Shown here: piece after piece, positions 28,568-50,465 of the stretch
How positions within the stretch are numbered: the stretch's first letter is position 1
Layout: the number at the start of each line of letters is the position of its first letter
Origin: Escherichia phage vB_vPM_PD06
DNA: 64,000 nt
Direction: 5' to 3' (one strand)
Sequence record: NC_052653.1
Program-made: the position numbers and the translations under genes
Notes under the pieces: generated by a model
Databases searched by the model: none
Told to the model about the DNA's origin: nothing
Seen by the model: only the letters and a program-made list of their open reading frames with translations

Positions 28568-28590
28568 AAGGGGCGAAAGCCCCTTTTAAT
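28568..28590 (-). terminator. hairpin GGGGC-GAAA-GCCCC between tail fibre genes
   Basis: Same hairpin as at 17405-17425, with A/T-rich flanks on both sides. Confidence 0.4.
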
Positions 28591-32912: not shown

Positions 32913-33542
32913 TTATTCTATTTGAGCTATCAGCATAGTCATTCGCCCTGTATCATCTCCTTCAGCCTCTGTGTAAAGAGAACCTAAACCACCTATACCA
33001 TGAGGTGGATTTGTGGCATAATAGGAAGTGAAACCAAAGGCTGAACCCGCTTTCGCACCTAAGCGATAACTACTTAGGATCGGGAAAACGTTAAGTAACT
33101 GTGCTACTGCCTGATCGGATTGTAGACACAAATTATAAAAGAATACGTCGAATGTTTTATTTAATCCAACGTATGTATTAATCGTTTCTTTTTCTGTTCC
33201 TGTAAAACGAGCGAACATATCAATGATATCATCTCGCGTACCAGAAGACGCAACACGATAAGCCCTGATTTTTAATATTGTACGATACTCTTCATCTGTA
33301 GCACCATTTCTTTCCATCCCCATTTCTTCACCAATAAGATCTAAATACTTACCAGTTGCAGTAGAGATTAAGCGGTGTTTGGCAAGATAGATCATTGCCT
33401 GATCTATCTTTTGTTTTTCGCTAGAAATGATATAGAGTAGTTTGACAATGTTCGGAGAAGATTTAAAATCTTCAATCAGTAGGTCTTTAACATCTTCATT
33501 GATACTATCCCACGTTGTCACATGGTCAACACTCACTGCCAT
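32913..33542 (-). CDS. hypothetical structural protein
   Basis: ORF track; late module. Confidence 0.4.
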   Translation of the reverse strand: MAVSVDHVTTWDSINEDVKDLLIEDFKSSPNIVKLLYIISSEKQKIDQAMIYLAKHRLISTATGKYLDLIGEEMGMERNGATDEEYRTILKIRAYRVASSGTRDDIIDMFARFTGTEKETINTYVGLNKTFDVFFYNLCLQSDQAVAQLLNVFPILSSYRLGAKAGSAFGFTSYYATNPPHGIGGLGSLYTEAEGDDTGRMTMLIAQIE

Positions 33543-33544
33543 TT

Positions 33545-35032
33545 TTAGACTCCGTACTCGTAGGAAATATTATCAAGGTCAAAGGATGGTACAACATTGT
33601 ACGCTGGAGTAATATCTCCCTCATTATATTTACTGTCATCCTCAGTATTAAGTTTAACATAAACACGGAGAGAAGTCAAGCGTCCGAACGCAAGTGCAGA
33701 ATAAATTACACCTTTTATCTGATCGTTAGTTACTGTTGACCCTAATTCAAAATAAGCCTGTAAGTTTGCAAGAGCAGAAACAATATTTTCCCTTTCTGTT
33801 GTACTTAACACACTACCATTGCCAGTTTGATACACCAGTTTAAGCGAGTATTCCGCATTATCCCCAGGAGAAAAACGAATTACTTCTTGACCACCATCTT
33901 CTGTTATGATAGTAATTGCTGTTGTACCATAGGTTAAGGTGTTAATAGGCTTAGTATTATAAATAACCTGTGCAACTTCTTCTGCTGTACCACCATACAC
34001 AATAGTCTGGAATGTCATAGCTGGAGCATGTTCCTGATCATGTAGTGTAGGGTTATCATAAATCTTAACCTTTGTCACACCATCTGTCAGTAGTAGAGCT
34101 TTAACAATAGCAGCACGAGTAGCAGCATTAGCTTCATCCATATTATCATTGAAACGAGAGCGGAATTCTGCATCTGTTTCAACATCCGTACCTGGAGAGA
34201 ATGGATAGAAGTTACCTGTATCTAAAAAGCCTGTAAACGTTGAAGAAATACCTGTAATACTTTCTGTACCTACTGGATTATAACCAACGTCTGAACACGT
34301 AACTGGAATTTCACTCCATTTTGTACCAATTGCAATAGATGCGTAAAATTTCACTGGTGTTACTAGACCTATTGGGTTAACATTATCTTCTGGATTATAA
34401 CCCATATAAACATTACTAGCATCATTCCATACTAAAGCACGATCTGTTGTTGATACGTTAGCTTTAATGAAATTCGTGAGATCTAAAATAAAGTTTGTAT
34501 TGCTAGGACTTAATGTTTTACTGTTAAGACCACCATCAATAGCACTTTGAATGTAGAAAGTAATAGAAGTTTCACCAGAAGCTGTTGCGTTTGCTTTAGA
34601 AATGGTGTATGCTCCAATCTTAGCATTCAACATTGTTGGTGCACTGACATAATATGTCAAATCGTTATCGGCATTAAAATAAACATCTGTGCTTAGCTCA
34701 TAAGTCCAAGCTGCCTTATTGTTAGATTTAACATAAGCATGACCACTACCAGCAGAAGCAGCTTTACGATAAAAACCTCTTTTAGAGAAGATTTCATCAA
34801 GGTAAATACCTTCTGCACCATCTAAGGTTTGGGTATTGTAAACACCTTGCATACCTTCCCAAAGGGTGTAATCTGTGTATGCAATAATACGGAACAGTTG
34901 ACCAAAGACAGTATCTTCAGATGTAGCTGTATCTGCACCGAAAGTGTTTTTCAATGCTGTCATATAATTATTTAAAATATCATCAAACGTTGGAATTACA
35001 AAACCAGCATCTGTTAAACCATAATCTGCCAT
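33545..35032 (-). CDS. hypothetical baseplate/tail structural protein
   Basis: 495 aa; translationally coupled to the next gene; late module. Confidence 0.4.
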   Translation of the reverse strand: MADYGLTDAGFVIPTFDDILNNYMTALKNTFGADTATSEDTVFGQLFRIIAYTDYTLWEGMQGVYNTQTLDGAEGIYLDEIFSKRGFYRKAASAGSGHAYVKSNNKAAWTYELSTDVYFNADNDLTYYVSAPTMLNAKIGAYTISKANATASGETSITFYIQSAIDGGLNSKTLSPSNTNFILDLTNFIKANVSTTDRALVWNDASNVYMGYNPEDNVNPIGLVTPVKFYASIAIGTKWSEIPVTCSDVGYNPVGTESITGISSTFTGFLDTGNFYPFSPGTDVETDAEFRSRFNDNMDEANAATRAAIVKALLLTDGVTKVKIYDNPTLHDQEHAPAMTFQTIVYGGTAEEVAQVIYNTKPINTLTYGTTAITIITEDGGQEVIRFSPGDNAEYSLKLVYQTGNGSVLSTTERENIVSALANLQAYFELGSTVTNDQIKGVIYSALAFGRLTSLRVYVKLNTEDDSKYNEGDITPAYNVVPSFDLDNISYEYGV

Positions 35033-35277
35033 TAATTATCCTCCTTATCAGGGGCAGGTGATCTGCCCCAACGTAAATCTATTAAATTCTTCATTAGTCT
35101 GGATGGTGTGATCATAAAAACAAAAGCCCAGCCCATCCATTCAGGAATTTCTTTATCAATTCCCAAATAAATAAACATACTGGACATAACAATCATACCA
35201 ATAGCATTCCAAACTTTAGTAGAACTGACTTTATTATCAGGATATGTACAAAACATACCTATTAAAAATTTTCTCAT
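35032..35277 (-). CDS. small membrane protein, two predicted transmembrane helices
   Basis: 81 aa with two hydrophobic segments; could be holin-like, unproven. Confidence 0.35.
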   Translation of the reverse strand: MRKFLIGMFCTYPDNKVSSTKVWNAIGMIVMSSMFIYLGIDKEIPEWMGWAFVFMITPSRLMKNLIDLRWGRSPAPDKEDN

Positions 35278-35582
35278 GGTGCGTTCTCATTACTTTTTAA
35301 ATCACGATATACAGCTAATTCCCCAAGGTCTACAGAACCCGCTGAATGCACAAGTACAGCAGCACTAAGACTAATGGCAGTAGTACCTGGGGCAATATCA
35401 GCAGGTAGGGAATACGCCCTTTGCGTCTCCTTATCATAGATAACCTTATACCCACCCAAATCCACACCAACTGAGAAGTAAACAACCTCAGATTGTTTAA
35501 CTCCAAAGTGACGGGCTACTGCTTGTTTATTGGTTAAGATTCCGGTTGAACCTTTACCACCTTGGGAGAACATTTCGTTCAT
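35274..35582 (-). CDS. hypothetical protein
   Basis: ORF track; overlaps the next gene by 4 nt. Confidence 0.4.
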   Translation of the reverse strand: MNEMFSQGGKGSTGILTNKQAVARHFGVKQSEVVYFSVGVDLGGYKVIYDKETQRAYSLPADIAPGTTAISLSAAVLVHSAGSVDLGELAVYRDLKSNENAP

Positions 35583-35829
35583 AACAACCTCTTTGTTTTT
35601 CTAAGTAAGCCCCTCTTTGGAGGGGCTTGCAGTGGTAGTGACAACACTTTGAGTTAGTACGATAGTAACTAAAGACAAGATTAACCCTGCTACGATATGT
35701 TTTCATCATTTTATCACATGGCGATGACATGCGCTTGCAGGACATAGTTTGTATGGGTTGTGCGGAATGCCATTTTTGGCCTCTTGTCATCAATAAGTAA
35801 GTATTCATTTCCCCCGCCGAAGCGGGGTT

Positions 35830-37947
35830 TTATATTAAACCATACACTACATTGTGTATTGTTAAACTGCCAATCGAGTTCCCAACATTAAAATTCACCT
35901 CAGCCTTGTATGCTCCTTGAGGGACTGAATCCACTAAAGCATAAAAATTGAATGTGTCGCCTACTGGGATGTTATACCCTATGGAATCCGCAACAGCATT
36001 TCCTTGCTGGTCCAGGAATCTAATTGACGCCAGGGTTGTTGTTAGATTTTTAGCCCAAAAACCAAGCTGAAAATAACGACCAGGCTCACAATCAATGATT
36101 GTTTGGGTGAAATTAGCTGCTGCCTCAGCTGATGGTACAGATAAAACAAAAGAAGTTGAAAACATTAAATCATTAGGAACATCGTTTGCTGTAGTAGCAG
36201 TGACAACTCCTGTTCCAGTTTGCGATAGTGTCCAGTTAGATGTGTTTAAAAACTGTCCTGAGCCATTACTGATGCTATTAATATAAGGGCTTACAATGCT
36301 CCCTAAATTCCAGTTACTTGTGATAAATCCTGCCCGTGGATAGCACCCTCTGGACATTACTTTTTTGCTCGCGCCACCTATCAACTGTCTTGTGGGAAAT
36401 CCAGTAGCAATCGTTGTATTCCCATAGAGGGATAACGAGCAATTATTTAGGCTAACAACCCCATCGCCGTTGCTAACAATAGGTACACTGGTATACCCGT
36501 CTGGGAGTAGTATCGTCGAATTACTGACGGTTAATCGTGAACTGCCCTCCACAGTAAACCCAACGAAACTCTGACCAGGTTGGTACTCAATGTTACCGTT
36601 TGTGAAAACCACTGTTGCGTTATCGGATAGCGCAACAGCAGGGTCAAAATATCCTGATTTTTTACCTGCTGGCAGAGAGCAGCCATCGAATATAAATTGA
36701 CCATTAACAAATGTGAAAGGTCCACCGTTGTCAACCATCCAACAATGATTAAATCTTATAACTTCACCGGAATTTGCTGGTGAATTGAAAATAACAGAAT
36801 TTGTAAAACTTCTGGACAACGCACATTTATCAAAAAGAATACGATATGCATTATCAAGAAACTCAATCCCGGCAGTTGAGATAAACCCACTATTAGAGAT
36901 TCTTAACTCTGATACTTCACCACTGGTAGAACCACCGATAGCCAATTTCCTGGAACCTTTCCCGACGAATGACACACCACTAATCAAAGAAGTTGCGTTA
37001 ATTGCATCTCTGTTAGTGTAATCAGCGCCTGTATTAATGATGGTTAGGTAGTAGTCACCGGTTACAGATGAAGATTCTGTTAAAGTACATTTATTTTTTC
37101 CAATAAGTGCGCCTTTTGCTATGTCGAAAATAATTGGTGTTGTTATCTCTCCTGAAACAGGGACTACACAGTCAAACCCGGCAGCGTTTATTGTGTTGAT
37201 GAATACCGCCAAATCTTCGGTTCCAGTATAACCAGCATCATACACATCCACGGAACCATTGAAGAATTTTCTTTTCCATACCACACCGTTTCCGGGGAAG
37301 GTAACAATATTGTCTATAGCTGTATCCGCGCTAACAGCTACCATAATACCACCACCAAAGTTAAAACCGCTCACATACGAATCAAGTATTATGGAATCAC
37401 CAATTGATCCTGATATTGATGATAACTCAGAAACTGATGATGCAGTTCCTATATAAGACAAGCCATTTGTTTTATTTAAATCACCCCTCAGGGTGGCATC
37501 ACCAACACTAGCCCACGCACTAGGACCAACACCACCGGTTGATGTAGGGGTTGAGTCAGCGGGAACAGCTTTAGGGAAAGCACCACCCCATGTATAGCAC
37601 TGTCCACCTGCAATATACCAAACAGCATCAGTATTATTATTTAATGTAGCACCATCCTCAAAGCTACCATCAACAAGTGTTAACCCCGCTTCAGCAAGAC
37701 TACGACGCCACTGTTCACGATCATTAAGAAGATTGTTATTCAACTCTTCCTGAACAGTATTACCATTTGAGGATTGTATTAAATCTGCTCCATCTGTATC
37801 TTTCAACTGGGTGGCTAAAACCACCCCAGTGTCAGTAAGAAAATTAGAAACTGTGCTTTTAACGGTCTTATCAGGTTGGTCTAAAACTAGGTAATCAGAA
37901 CCATTAACTTTTGATGTTTCCGGTAAATTAGTAATTGTAGTTGACAT
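35830..37947 (-). CDS. tailspike protein (beta-helix-like) sharing an N-terminal motif with the collagen-like fibre
   Basis: CYTWGGAFPKAVPADSTPTSTGGVGPSAWASVG closely matches YYQWKGSLPKVVPANSTPTSTGGISDTAWKNVG in the 26579..28549 protein; the remainder is Gly/Asn/Ser/Thr-rich repetitive beta sequence. Confidence 0.55.
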   Translation of the reverse strand: MSTTITNLPETSKVNGSDYLVLDQPDKTVKSTVSNFLTDTGVVLATQLKDTDGADLIQSSNGNTVQEELNNNLLNDREQWRRSLAEAGLTLVDGSFEDGATLNNNTDAVWYIAGGQCYTWGGAFPKAVPADSTPTSTGGVGPSAWASVGDATLRGDLNKTNGLSYIGTASSVSELSSISGSIGDSIILDSYVSGFNFGGGIMVAVSADTAIDNIVTFPGNGVVWKRKFFNGSVDVYDAGYTGTEDLAVFINTINAAGFDCVVPVSGEITTPIIFDIAKGALIGKNKCTLTESSSVTGDYYLTIINTGADYTNRDAINATSLISGVSFVGKGSRKLAIGGSTSGEVSELRISNSGFISTAGIEFLDNAYRILFDKCALSRSFTNSVIFNSPANSGEVIRFNHCWMVDNGGPFTFVNGQFIFDGCSLPAGKKSGYFDPAVALSDNATVVFTNGNIEYQPGQSFVGFTVEGSSRLTVSNSTILLPDGYTSVPIVSNGDGVVSLNNCSLSLYGNTTIATGFPTRQLIGGASKKVMSRGCYPRAGFITSNWNLGSIVSPYINSISNGSGQFLNTSNWTLSQTGTGVVTATTANDVPNDLMFSTSFVLSVPSAEAAANFTQTIIDCEPGRYFQLGFWAKNLTTTLASIRFLDQQGNAVADSIGYNIPVGDTFNFYALVDSVPQGAYKAEVNFNVGNSIGSLTIHNVVYGLI

Positions 37948-37955
37948 TTTTACTC

Positions 37956-40115
37956 CTATATATAAAATTTTTGTGTTGTTACTAAATCTTCTCCAGATTT
38001 AGTGGCTAATGTAATTCCACTTATAGTGGCAATCTCAACATTTACCTGTTTAAGAGTGATATCTTGCAAGTAGCAATTCAAAGGCACATTACCCATATAA
38101 AACACTTGGGATTTTGAATTAAGAACAGTTATTGAATCATGCATTATTTGTGGGTAAGCCCATATGTATTGATATAAACCAACAAACTTCTGATCATTCA
38201 ATACAATATTACCTATAATCATTTTCCACAAATATGTTCTGTAGTCTGATTCAGGATCAAAGCCATATAATGGTGCTAGAGTTGCGTCTGGAACAAACCC
38301 TGCAAGATAATGTATCTTATCATAACTAAAACCTAGTTGCTCATTAGGTATTTTGATAGCGTCGAAAGATCTTTCCATCTGACCTTCCAACAACCAGTCA
38401 TAACATTCTGAACAATAAAAGTCAAAGTTTTCTGGGATATAATAATCTTTAGGGAAGTTAACAAACTCCATCATACCGTTACCTAAAATGGATGGCACAA
38501 ATGGTAATAATGTAACTTTAGCTCCAGGATAGGCTAATTTAGTATCTGTTGCAAATTTAGCAACACGCAGTCCTAATGTTTTAGATAGGAATGCATAATA
38601 TTCATCATATGGTGTACCAGTTTTATAATTCTTAACTGTACCAACATCTTGTGCATATAATCCAGTTTCATTATTAAATGCAACTTTGGTTGCATAATCA
38701 TAAATACACGGGAGATTGGTAGCTGTGTTATACCACCACCACGGTTCACCAACCTGAATAATAACAGGAAGATCATTGGCAGCGGATATAGAAGCTATCT
38801 TATTTATTACACCTTGTAAATAATTCATCCCTTCATCAATTGAAGGAGATAAAACATAACTTGGTGGCTCATAACCTGTAGCAGCCAGATCATCATTCCA
38901 AGTATGTTGTACCCATTCTACAGGACACACTGTACTCATAAGTTCAAAACTTAAGGAGTTCATTACTGTGTAGCCCATAGCTTTTGCATTAGCGTGGAAA
39001 TTATCAAACCAGGCTTCTGTTGCTGGGTTTAAATATTCTGTTCTATTCAAAGCCCATTTATTAGATCCAGCATCCCAACTAAATTGATAATAGTGTGACA
39101 TACCATTATAATGGTTAATCATATCTCTATAACCTAATCTATAGGTGTTAGAAATAACTCGCTCTGGGGTTAGGTTATACATATCATCATAAGATGTACA
39201 CATTCTTATGGTGTGTGCTGGAACATTTAAATTACCCATATTCATCATACTATAACCCGTATCAGGTTCCAGTATGGTAAACTTAAAGGAAAGATCCTCA
39301 TTGTCTACAGGAATAATATCTTCAATTTCTTGATACCTTGTGGAGATCAAGGAGAAGAACATATTATCTATCTGTGTAGTGTCAACAACAATATCATTTT
39401 CTGGCCCAGATTTTAAATTTGAGAAATCTAATTTTATTGTTGCTGTTTTACCATCCTCTGAAACTTCTTCTGCATAAAAGTTTAGAGATACATAATGAAC
39501 TGTTTCATCCTTCAGTGTCACTGTTAAGGATGGCAATAATTTTTCTTCTTTTAATCCAGGAACACCTTGACTAAGTTCCATTTTAAACCAAAGTTTCTCT
39601 TTACTTAAGTCAGAATGTTCTTGGTAGCCTAATCCTTTGTGATCATATTTATCGTAAGTTGACCAAATAATCCCAGCAAGACCAGCCACTGTCCTATTAA
39701 CCATTCTTGCTGTGAAAGAATCACCATTAGAGATAATAGAACAACTTTCTGTTGCTTGAGAATCTATTGTCCAAAACTTAGGATCAAACATTCTAGACTT
39801 CACAACAGGCCAAGTTAGCGGGGTTGTATTCGATTGATTAGTCGTAATAACACAACGAATTTCTTCATTGATCATCATGTTATTTTGACTTATGCTAGTA
39901 ATCTCAAGAGTAAAATAAAGATCTAAAGAGTTTGCCGGACGTTCATATACATCAACCACCACAGTAGCAGAATCTGCATCAGAAGGGAACGTTACTGTTC
40001 CCTGTTTAGCTACATAATCTCTACCAGCGACCGCCGTTCCATCGACGGTCTTATAGCTGAATGAACTGGCATTTACTCTCGTATTTCGAGTTACAGTAAA
40101 AATAGCCTGTTTCAT
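37956..40115 (-). CDS. large hypothetical structural protein
   Basis: 719 aa; late module. Confidence 0.45.
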   Translation of the reverse strand: MKQAIFTVTRNTRVNASSFSYKTVDGTAVAGRDYVAKQGTVTFPSDADSATVVVDVYERPANSLDLYFTLEITSISQNNMMINEEIRCVITTNQSNTTPLTWPVVKSRMFDPKFWTIDSQATESCSIISNGDSFTARMVNRTVAGLAGIIWSTYDKYDHKGLGYQEHSDLSKEKLWFKMELSQGVPGLKEEKLLPSLTVTLKDETVHYVSLNFYAEEVSEDGKTATIKLDFSNLKSGPENDIVVDTTQIDNMFFSLISTRYQEIEDIIPVDNEDLSFKFTILEPDTGYSMMNMGNLNVPAHTIRMCTSYDDMYNLTPERVISNTYRLGYRDMINHYNGMSHYYQFSWDAGSNKWALNRTEYLNPATEAWFDNFHANAKAMGYTVMNSLSFELMSTVCPVEWVQHTWNDDLAATGYEPPSYVLSPSIDEGMNYLQGVINKIASISAANDLPVIIQVGEPWWWYNTATNLPCIYDYATKVAFNNETGLYAQDVGTVKNYKTGTPYDEYYAFLSKTLGLRVAKFATDTKLAYPGAKVTLLPFVPSILGNGMMEFVNFPKDYYIPENFDFYCSECYDWLLEGQMERSFDAIKIPNEQLGFSYDKIHYLAGFVPDATLAPLYGFDPESDYRTYLWKMIIGNIVLNDQKFVGLYQYIWAYPQIMHDSITVLNSKSQVFYMGNVPLNCYLQDITLKQVNVEIATISGITLATKSGEDLVTTQKFYI

Positions 40116-47012: not shown

Positions 47013-47059
47013 ATAATTTTACCTCTTAATGTGATAAGAAACATTCTCCCTTATCACTC

Positions 47060-47089
47060 ATTTTATCACGAAAAACAACTCTTTGTCAA
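47060..47089 (-). promoter_or_regulatory. sigma70-like promoter on minus strand (TTGACA, 18 nt, TAAAAT)
   Basis: Minus-strand reading: TTGACA (plus 47084-47089) and TAAAAT (plus 47060-47065), upstream of the 46302..47012 gene. Confidence 0.4.
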
Positions 47090-47100
47090 GACAAATAAAA

Positions 47101-47120
47101 AGCCCCGCCGAAGCGAGGCT
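47101..47120 (-). terminator. rho-independent terminator after tape-measure gene
   Basis: Minus-strand hairpin AGCCTCGC-TTCG-GCGGGGCT followed by TTTTATTTG. Confidence 0.5.
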
Positions 47121-47127
47121 TTATGCA

Positions 47128-50407: not shown

Positions 50408-50465
50408 AGTGGATCTCCTTTTATACTACTTTTCATATAAGCGGGGTTTCCCCCGCTGCTTTTAA

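Follow-up and report, generated by a model that had tools for sequence, protein, structure and literature searches.

We found that the 247-bp gap at 35583-35829 is probably a composite spacer between two exchangeable receptor-binding-protein units of a phi92-like myovirus, with no gene or RNA locus of its own. The window, i.e., the whole 64-kb stretch of DNA that was analyzed, matched Escherichia phage vB_vPM_PD114 at 100% (MH675927.1; Stephanstirmvirinae, Justusliebigvirus, phi92-like), and we refer to it as PD114 hereafter. Its structural module (24653-62708) is transcribed wholly from the minus strand and is tightly packed, with a total of 1407 intergenic nt in 38,055 nt; within these 38 kb, the gap (247 nt) is the second-largest intergenic one. 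It lies at the receptor-binding-protein locus, in the tail-fibre/tailspike cluster, and is bounded exactly by two minus-strand open reading frames (ORFs) of the ORF list. A preliminary description had located it between two minus-strand tail genes, and these coordinates proved exact, with both flanking genes giving tailspike family matches. The hairpins within the gap are an instance of an already known kind of element, namely tailspike-cassette borders with conserved terminator-like hairpins. The following features were distinguished:

35274..35582, minus strand: gene of a predicted 102-aa anchor-only protein, with PHROG matches to tailspike N-terminal parts
35554..35808, minus strand: spurious 84-aa ORF that overlaps the start of the 102-aa gene
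35583..35605, minus strand: junction with the Shine-Dalgarno sequence of the 102-aa gene, CTTAGAAAAACAAAGAGGTTGTT, nearly invariant in a seven-phage alignment across three families
35608-35627, minus strand: hairpin 1, sense strand AGCCCCUC-CAAA-GAGGGGCU, plus strand AGCCCCTC-TTTG-GAGGGGCT
35630..35755, unstranded: conserved non-coding core of ~125 nt, present in 12 phages (11 Stephanstirmvirinae and the Gamaleyavirus U1G)
35706..35717, minus strand: candidate extended -10 promoter GTGATAAAATGA (TG-n-TAAAAT), without a recognisable -35
35756..35811, unstranded: type-A spacer of 56 nt, found besides PD114 only in Ro121c4 and P3322
35812-35827, minus strand: hairpin 2, mRNA sense CCCCGC-UUCG-GCGGGG, plus strand CCCCGC-CGAA-GCGGGG
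35828..35834, plus strand: T-run composed of two non-coding bases, the TAA stop (35830-35832), and the last sense codon
35830..37947, minus strand: 705-aa tailspike gene (PHROG 4217 at 2.7e-264; Pfam Tail_spike_N)
about 37496/37780-37947, minus strand: 5' anchor part of the tailspike gene, common to related Stephanstirmvirinae

The 705-aa ORF, which ends at 35830, is upstream of the gap in the direction of transcription, and the 102-aa ORF, which starts at 35582, is downstream of it. Comparison with other phages revealed that the tailspike gene is a mosaic of two histories: Positions 35811-37726, i.e., the tailspike body together with hairpin 2, shared 85.4% identity with the tailspike of phiHAO78-1, a podophage of 44 kb, and positions 35884-37590 were 75.5% identical to the body of PhAPEC5 gp68, while homology to relatives returned only at ~37496-37780, in the 5' part of the gene. 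On the other side, the backbone 35000-35831 is common to Ro121c4 and P3322, two phages with tailspike bodies that are not related to the PD114 one. By these alignments, the stretch 35811-37726 is a horizontally acquired receptor-binding cassette. The 102-aa protein was covered by PHROG profiles only at profile positions 1-95 or 327-420, in tailspike families that are 550-1160 positions long. As its matches to many tailspike families are confined to the first ~95 positions, the protein is predicted to be a stand-alone tailspike N-terminal anchor domain without an enzymatic body. Its gene is shortened to 49 aa in UP17 and W22, and the DNA of DIJ07P2 (unannotated) carries the same internal deletion.

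The two homologies meet at hairpin 2, which begins 2 nt past the TAA stop of the tailspike gene and has six GC pairs. The homology of PD114 to phiHAO78-1 ends at 35811 and that to Ro121c4, as to P3322, ends at 35831, such that the overlap consists of hairpin 2 only. Because this patch of ~20 nt is the sole one common to two otherwise unrelated partners, it is the crossover joint at which a podophage-like tailspike body was attached to the resident backbone; two homologies that overlap only here are the pattern expected of recombination at a short shared palindrome. Homologies also broke off at hairpin 1, at 35612 for BME3, 35615 for nieznany, 35628 for PhAPEC5, and 35633 for SS9 ("33 nt further"). 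Breakpoints accordingly coincided with the motif at both hairpins, which are non-coding, placed after a receptor-binding-protein gene and before an anchor gene, and conserved in Gamaleyavirus, Kuttervirus, and Justusliebigvirus.

Hairpin 2 is a ~20-nt GC-rich palindrome found after tailspike genes in these phage groups. The same stem-loop, with U-tracts, was present in BME3 and anhysbys, and it is identical to the stem-loop CCCCGCTTCGGCGGGG of the rho-independent terminator t003 (CCCCGCTTCGGCGGGG-ATTTTCTATTT) of rV5 (PMC3606486, Table S4), a phage of the same subfamily, although t003 has a sense-strand U-tract and hairpin 2 has none. Another report describes a "motif three", a conserved ~20-nt predicted terminator downstream of receptor-binding-protein genes in Gamaleya-, Kutter-, and Justusliebigviruses, and proposes it as a recombination hotspot flanking the receptor-binding domain (Virol J 2023, PMC10408124). 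Judged by its position and properties, hairpin 2 is equivalent to motif three: It is non-coding, follows right after a tailspike stop, is a GC-rich palindrome, and sits at the homology switch between two partners. PD114 differs from motif three by the missing sense U-tract and by a second hairpin 184 nt further on, beyond a conserved spacer.

Hairpin 1, which had earlier been placed near 35611-35630, is indeed present, at a true position about 3 nt further to the left. The pattern CCCCKC-N4-GMGGGG occurred in two copies in the 64 kb, both of them in the gap, where shuffled sequences gave an expectation of 0.00. When we searched the gap by blastn, 172 phage records matched only the first codons of the 102-aa gene, its ribosome binding site, and hairpin 1 (query 1-70). 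These records cover Stephanstirmvirinae, Gamaleyavirus, and Kuttervirus, and those with the hairpin 1 junction include SS3 and SS9 (Kuttervirus), PhAPEC5, PhAPEC7, pSb-1, ZQ2, and U1G (Gamaleyavirus), and BME3 (Justusliebigvirus). From BME3, nieznany, SS9, PhAPEC5, and ZQ2, in which the entire inter-tailspike gap is just ~50-120 nt, we read the canonical order of this junction as stop, A-rich tract, GC hairpin, TTTTTTAG, AAAAACAAAGAGG, N6, and ATGAACGA (ATG start), with hairpin stems of either CCCCTC..GAGGGG or CCCCGC..GCGGGG. The hairpin 1 homologue is followed by TTTTTTAG in BME3, nieznany, and SS9, and PhAPEC5 has an ARNold-annotated terminator at the hairpin 1 position. Across three phage families, hairpin 1 and CTTAGAAAAACAAAGAGG-N6-ATG thus form a conserved junction in front of the next gene for a tailspike N-terminal anchor.

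In PD114 itself, the sense-strand U-tract 3' of hairpin 1 is weakened (UUACUUAG; four T in the next 8 nt), and it reads CTTACTTAG in 12/12 core-bearing phages, as opposed to TTTTTTAG in the canonical relatives. A terminator scan of the minus strand called neither hairpin 1 nor hairpin 2: The gap displays the GC stem-loop right after a stop codon that is expected of an intrinsic terminator and lacks the U-tract 3' of the stem. A comparable element is known from phage G7C, where the stem-loop between genes 63.1 and 66 limits the recombinational exchange of tailspike modules (bioRxiv 10.1101/542787); the stem-loop itself goes back to Kulikov 2012, as cited by Babenko et al. in that preprint. Judging from the alignments, hairpin 1 is a homologue of this g66/g63.1 terminator-like stem-loop: Together with the ribosome binding site and the 5' end of the next anchor gene, it aligned with PhAPEC5, ZQ2, and U1G, and it occupies the same inter-tailspike position, where it likewise bounds exchanged segments. 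Unlike in G7C, the downstream gene of PD114 encodes the 102-aa anchor only, the U-tract is degenerate (TTACTTAG), and the host genome is that of a myovirus of another family.

Between the hairpins, the core (35630-35755) was in every case immediately followed, in the sense direction, by hairpin 1 and the 102-aa gene. Conservation in related phages, which the preliminary description had named as a check, was observed at two levels, with the core in 12 phages and the hairpin 1 junction in 172 records. Leftward of the core, the 12 phages show four unrelated continuations:

type A (PD114, Ro121c4, P3322): hairpin 2 and a private 56-nt spacer
type B (U1G, TSP7_1, ukendt, UP17, W22): hairpin 2 and another spacer
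type C (ZCKP1, G1, DIJ07P2): a truncated N4 gp63-like gene
type D (EF1-1): unrelated DNA

Beyond these 12, a blastn search with word size 11 across 50,697 phage records added only two chance-level matches, and the core had no match in complete E. coli genomes, in IMG/VR (20-mer search), or in JGI metagenomes (31-mer search with one N). The block of anchor gene, hairpin 1, and core (35274-35755) was 97-100% identical across genera, between PD114 and Phapecoctavirus members, whereas the adjoining genes reached 63-83% identity in the same comparison, which indicates that the block was exchanged recently. The near-invariance of the core is therefore no evidence of selection, and the almost invariant sequence leaves covariation and codon-pattern tests without power. 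Overall, the DNA between the hairpins is non-coding and moves jointly with the 102-aa anchor gene, in a single block of recent exchange. In sister phages, the position of the gap is taken by small ORFs (nieznany, anhysbys) or by a truncated N4 gp63-like gene, and the locus collects flanking DNA that arrives with tailspike cassettes. Among the options listed earlier for the gap, the remnant of a lost gene came closest, if it is understood as a mosaic spacer of tailspike-cassette recombination. We also considered the core as the missing 3' end of the truncated gp63-like gene in ZCKP1, G1, and DIJ07P2 and rejected this assignment; intact gp63 ends in ...AIIGVLAAARREIFAWFAG, without similarity to any frame of the core.

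The core does contain one element that resembles a regulatory signal. A search of the gap against the 64-kb window gave no further copies beyond a 13-nt hairpin fragment and the 12-mer GTGATAAAATGA, at ~47060-47115. At that distant site, the same 12-mer forms the -10 region of a consensus promoter, TTGACA-18-TAAAAT (47060-47089). Within it, TGATAAAAT (35708-35716 on the minus strand, 126 nt upstream of the ATG of the 102-aa gene) occurs in only two copies in the window, both on the minus strand and both intergenic. The element has the layout of an extended -10 promoter, with a TGn before a TATAAT-like hexamer, and it is intergenic and upstream of a gene. Such extended -10 promoters and a late motif, TggTAaAAtA, have been described for rV5 (PMC3606486), and we found that the core sequence TGTGATAAAATG agrees with the rV5 late motif TGTGGTAAAATA at 10/12 positions and that its -10 region is identical to that of rV5 P074 (TGATAAAAT). 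Unlike the rV5 promoters, the candidate lacks a -35, and the published promoters are all at other loci. Promoters of this class do not require a -35 hexamer; a two-hexamer scan called no site with one at the usual 16-18 nt from the candidate -10, and by eye, the hexamers at 17-18 nt are AAGCGC and CAAGCG. We infer that TGTGATAAAATG, as a putative promoter, is the only functional candidate of the core.

It is conceivable, although we hold this only tentatively, that the core functions as a regulatory unit on the sense strand, in which the extended -10 element starts an RNA at ~35700 that either ends at a leaky hairpin 1 (~100 nt) or extends further to serve as leader for the 102-aa gene and baseplate operon. 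Such a unit would be compatible with a mosaic origin and would differ from it by giving the core a selected function. Besides the scarcity and placement of TGATAAAAT, the consensus promoter around its second copy, and the resemblance to rV5 signals, this possibility draws on the sigma70-like promoters that the other module gaps of >80 nt carry, on a fold z-score of -3.1 for the candidate RNA, and on the joint occurrence of the promoter-like element and hairpin 1 with the weakened U-tract CTTACTTAG in 12/12 core phages, where the weakened tract would permit read-through from a core promoter, albeit in what is one evolutionary lineage. Several points weigh against it: The missing -35 element aside, the enrichment is based on only two sites, the z-score is driven by hairpin 1 itself, the TG is changed to GG in U1G, and the 12 copies stem from one recently spread block, such that their co-occurrence amounts to a single event. 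Moreover, BME3 and SS9, which are without the core, express the same downstream genes with the hairpin and ribosome binding site alone. A bolder version, which we regard as doubtful, holds that core and hairpin 1 form a mobile regulatory cassette, made up of an extended -10 promoter, a ~100-nt leader or RNA, and a deliberately leaky terminator, that is exchanged, together with the gene of the anchor-only tailspike, between an N4-like podovirus and a myovirus subfamily and re-starts or tunes the transcription of downstream baseplate genes after the insertion of a foreign tailspike cassette upstream. Only if the core is a true transferable promoter/leader cassette would the gap pose a new biological question; otherwise, its value is mainly in annotation and engineering. 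Cassettes of this general sort are reportedly found in T4-type phages, where the promoter-early stem-loop (PeSL) cassettes of Arbiol et al. 2010 reportedly border variable genes and have been proposed to mediate the shuffling of modules. The likeness, short regulatory modules of a stem-loop and a promoter, is an analogy only, as PeSL cassettes belong to other phages, have another sequence, and serve early rather than late genes.

The composite-spacer reading also has to account for the T-run beside hairpin 2, from which a plus-oriented terminator had been proposed. The T-run is present as described, in the plus orientation only, with TTTT at 35828-35831. On the plus strand, hairpin 2 is followed by TTTTATATT (six T among 8 nt); its minus-strand counterpart, GAAATGAA, has one. 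The T-run of PD114 is, however, the TAA stop plus two bases of the A-tract that normally precedes such hairpins. Among the perfect GC hairpins of the module, A-rich upstream flanks (4-6 A in 8 nt) were the rule, and the sense-strand U-tracts varied from 1 to 6 T in 8 nt. Hairpin 2 is present in eight of the 12 core-bearing phages, in seven of them intact and in ukendt in a degenerate form, and absent from ZCKP1, G1, DIJ07P2, and EF1-1. In all eight, the sense-strand U-tract is gone and the A-rich front tract is kept, as TAAAA, TAACAAAAA, TAAAACAAAA, or TAAATAAAG; the T-rich tract that this yields on the plus strand was seen in seven of them, with U1G having no T-run. As the tract is partly non-coding in these phages, some selection for antisense termination is conceivable. 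We therefore read the apparent plus-oriented terminator as half of a symmetric terminator of A-tract, hairpin, and U-tract: Recombination behind hairpin 2 would have removed the sense-strand U-tract and left the upstream A-tract, which then reads as a T-run on the opposite strand. More generally, an apparent antisense terminator can arise merely by such a loss of the U-tract at a recombination joint.

In contrast, we consider it unlikely that hairpin 2 is a genuine plus-strand intrinsic terminator, one that ends an antisense RNA from within the gap or insulates the tailspike gene from antisense transcription that could start further left, for instance at an 11/12 promoter-like site at 33442-33469. 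When promoters and terminators were predicted on both strands, as had been suggested, six GC pairs followed by TTTTATATT did emerge as the best-scoring terminator-like site of the region. T-rich tails, partly non-coding, also occur in Ro121c4, P3322, TSP7_1, UP17, W22, and ukendt, a second hairpin of this kind is found at 50440-50457, near-consensus plus-strand promoter-like sites are located at 33442, 37941, and 39084, and hairpin 1 of PD114 is more stable on the plus strand (-22.1 kcal/mol) than on the minus strand (-16.5 kcal/mol). As for a promoter, the sole plus-strand promoter-like site in the gap, GTGACA-17-GATAGT at 35638-35666, scores 9/12, a class of site that occurs at chance frequency (7 found versus 7.4 expected from shuffles). 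Against a plus-strand terminator, hairpin 2 carries its UUCG loop on the sense strand, and because of this tetraloop it is more stable there (-13.6 kcal/mol on the minus strand versus -12.1 kcal/mol on the plus strand). An A-tract of the kind that makes up the T-run is found before nearly all GC hairpins of the module, and promoter-like site and terminator are not kept together in relatives, with 4/12 core-bearing phages lacking hairpin 2 and U1G lacking the T-run. In addition, all Rfam families scored below threshold (the best match at a permissive E-value had 22.4 bits against a gathering score of 50), and ARAGORN called no tRNA or tmRNA in the gap. The T-run was the only basis for the small antisense RNA or insulator that the preliminary description had offered as further options, and we found no evidence for an antisense RNA and nothing that specifically speaks for an insulator. 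A literature search for transcriptomes of rV5-like, phi92-like, or CBA120-like phages found none.

For the composite spacer, the following picture would fit the data at the levels of RNA and DNA. In the late mRNA, both hairpins would form stable stem-loops (UUCG tetraloop) with read-through to the essential downstream baseplate genes, and they may protect 3' ends. At the DNA level, they may serve as short homology patches or structure-prone sites in swaps of tailspike cassettes. An extended -10 promoter on the sense strand of the core may additionally serve the 102-aa gene and those downstream of it.

That the hairpins are instead recognition or cleavage sites of a nuclease that mobilizes tailspike cassettes in a homing-like manner, as has been speculated for G7C-like phages (bioRxiv 10.1101/542787), seems very improbable to us. 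The breakpoints do coincide with the hairpins, and P3322 and G1 carry the hairpin 1 loop in exactly inverted form, showing that the palindrome is processed as DNA. Yet, template switching and short-homology recombination explain loop inversion and breakpoints equally well, and no endonuclease gene adjoins the locus in the annotated regions of any of the phages examined.

Least credible of all is a small protein gene hidden in the gap, either the 84-aa ORF or a membrane peptide in the frame KHIVAGLILSLVTIVLTQSVVTTTASPSKEGLT*, reached from ATGATGAAA via a +1 shift or a non-canonical start: The peptide does resemble a transmembrane helix, three substitutions in its N-terminal part (U1G, DIJ07P2) are third-position and synonymous in its frame, and small membrane-protein ORFs occupy the same position in anhysbys and N4-like phages, but the frame is preceded by TGA TGA with no ATG or GTG start in 12/12 phages, has an in-frame TAG in U1G and a frameshift near its end in ukendt, lacks a Shine-Dalgarno sequence, and returned only the same 12 phages by tblastn of the transmembrane-like peptide. 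Four other substitutions are synonymous in a different frame; in the codon-position analysis, the frames contradicted each other, and the numbers, from the few core substitutions, are too small. No open frame has a conserved start codon among the core-bearing phages. The ORF at 35554..35808 had been judged non-protein-like from the outset, and this was borne out: It had no match in PHROG or Pfam, and its frame is not conserved in Ro121c4 and P3322, its ATG opening a frame in P3322 that stops after 33 codons.

As borders of a composite spacer, the two hairpins mark natural crossover points of tailspike cassettes in phi92/rV5-like phages, and the same points are used in G7C-like and Kuttervirus phages. 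They are, consequently, sensible cut sites for swaps of the receptor-binding domain in the retargeting of therapeutic phages. For annotation, ORFs called across such spacers are untrustworthy, as exemplified by the 84-aa ORF here and by a 147-aa CDS annotated in phage G1.

The anchor-only gene and the core, i.e., the conserved non-coding DNA between hairpins 1 and 2, are together (35274-35755) 97-100% identical between PD114, a Justusliebigvirus, and Phapecoctavirus phages. In the same comparison, identity drops to 77-83% over the adjoining 81-aa membrane-protein gene and down to ~63% over the baseplate wedge gene. The mosaic boundary between 35274-35755 and 34400-35273 is sharp. The N4-like podovirus U1G (Gamaleyavirus; L005, 3200-5170) carries hairpin 2, the core, hairpin 1, and an anchor-only gene that are 91-97% identical to the myovirus block. 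The occurrence of the same block in a podovirus and in myoviruses indicates that it was transferred as a whole across families.

In the phapecoctaviruses G1 (vB_Ec-G1; L010, 3520-3963) and ZCKP1 (L004, 3701-3859), the core is adjoined by a truncated N4 gp63-like gene, the full version of which belongs to G7C-like podoviruses. This truncated copy appears to have arrived alongside a tailspike cassette from a podovirus. In G1, the coding sequence of 147 aa that has been annotated is the gp63-like fragment running on into non-coding DNA.

The 102-aa “tail protein” (35274-35582) corresponds to a tailspike N-terminal anchor domain alone. In phage PhAPEC5, a single tailspike gene, gp68 (L006, 1388-3523), encodes both a homologue of this protein, as its anchor, and a homologue of the 705-aa tailspike of PD114, as its body; in PD114, the two counterparts lie in separate genes and in reverse order. 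The regions of the window homologous to gp68 are as follows:

35311-35628, first region homologous to PhAPEC5 gp68
35884-37590, second region homologous to PhAPEC5 gp68

The anchor counterpart in phages UP17 and W22 (L017 and L018, each at 2303-2452) is annotated as a gene of 49 aa, and the unannotated phage DIJ07P2 (L019) lacks the same internal stretch as these two, equivalent to positions 35398-35554 of the window. Because it is shortened in these three phages, the anchor domain of the 102-aa gene may be dispensable or decaying.

Compared with near-identical relatives, phages P3322 (L016) and G1 have the loop of hairpin 1 (35616-35619) exactly inverted, so that its sense strand reads TTTG instead of CAAA. 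The inversion in P3322 is accompanied by a C-to-T change that makes the hairpin 1 palindrome perfect. Such loop inversion is the signature of a template-switch (quasipalindrome) mutation, which suggests that hairpin 1 forms in DNA.

Elsewhere in the window are two further intergenic elements:

47013-47127, minus strand, textbook unit of a terminator followed by a consensus promoter
50440-50457, between minus-strand genes, GC hairpin AGCGGGG-GAAA-CCCCGCT (sense strand) with a GNRA loop

The former consists of the terminator AAAGCCTCGC-UUCG-GCGGGGCTTT plus TTATTTG and then a consensus TTGACA-18-TAAAAT promoter with a TG upstream, and it has the 12-mer GTGATAAAATGA in common with the gap core. 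The latter is preceded by an A-run and lacks a sense-strand U-tract, for which reason the scan scored it, like hairpin 2, as a plus-strand terminator. A similar hairpin lies at 28569-28584.

Three plus-strand sites antisense to tail genes match the sigma70 consensus at 11 of 12 positions each:

33442-33469, plus strand, promoter-like site
37941-37968, plus strand, promoter-like site
39084-39112, plus strand, promoter-like site

The rough expectation for 11/12 sites is ~0.8 per 20 kb, and the sense strand of the same 20-kb stretch contained no sigma70 match as good. Immediately upstream of the first site lies a plus-strand terminator-like hairpin (33384-33410).

The end of the structural module is marked by tRNA genes:

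62883-63598, minus strand, six tRNA genes (Ile, Met, Leu, Phe, Pro, Gln)

This cluster adjoins the largest intergenic gap, at 62042-62387.
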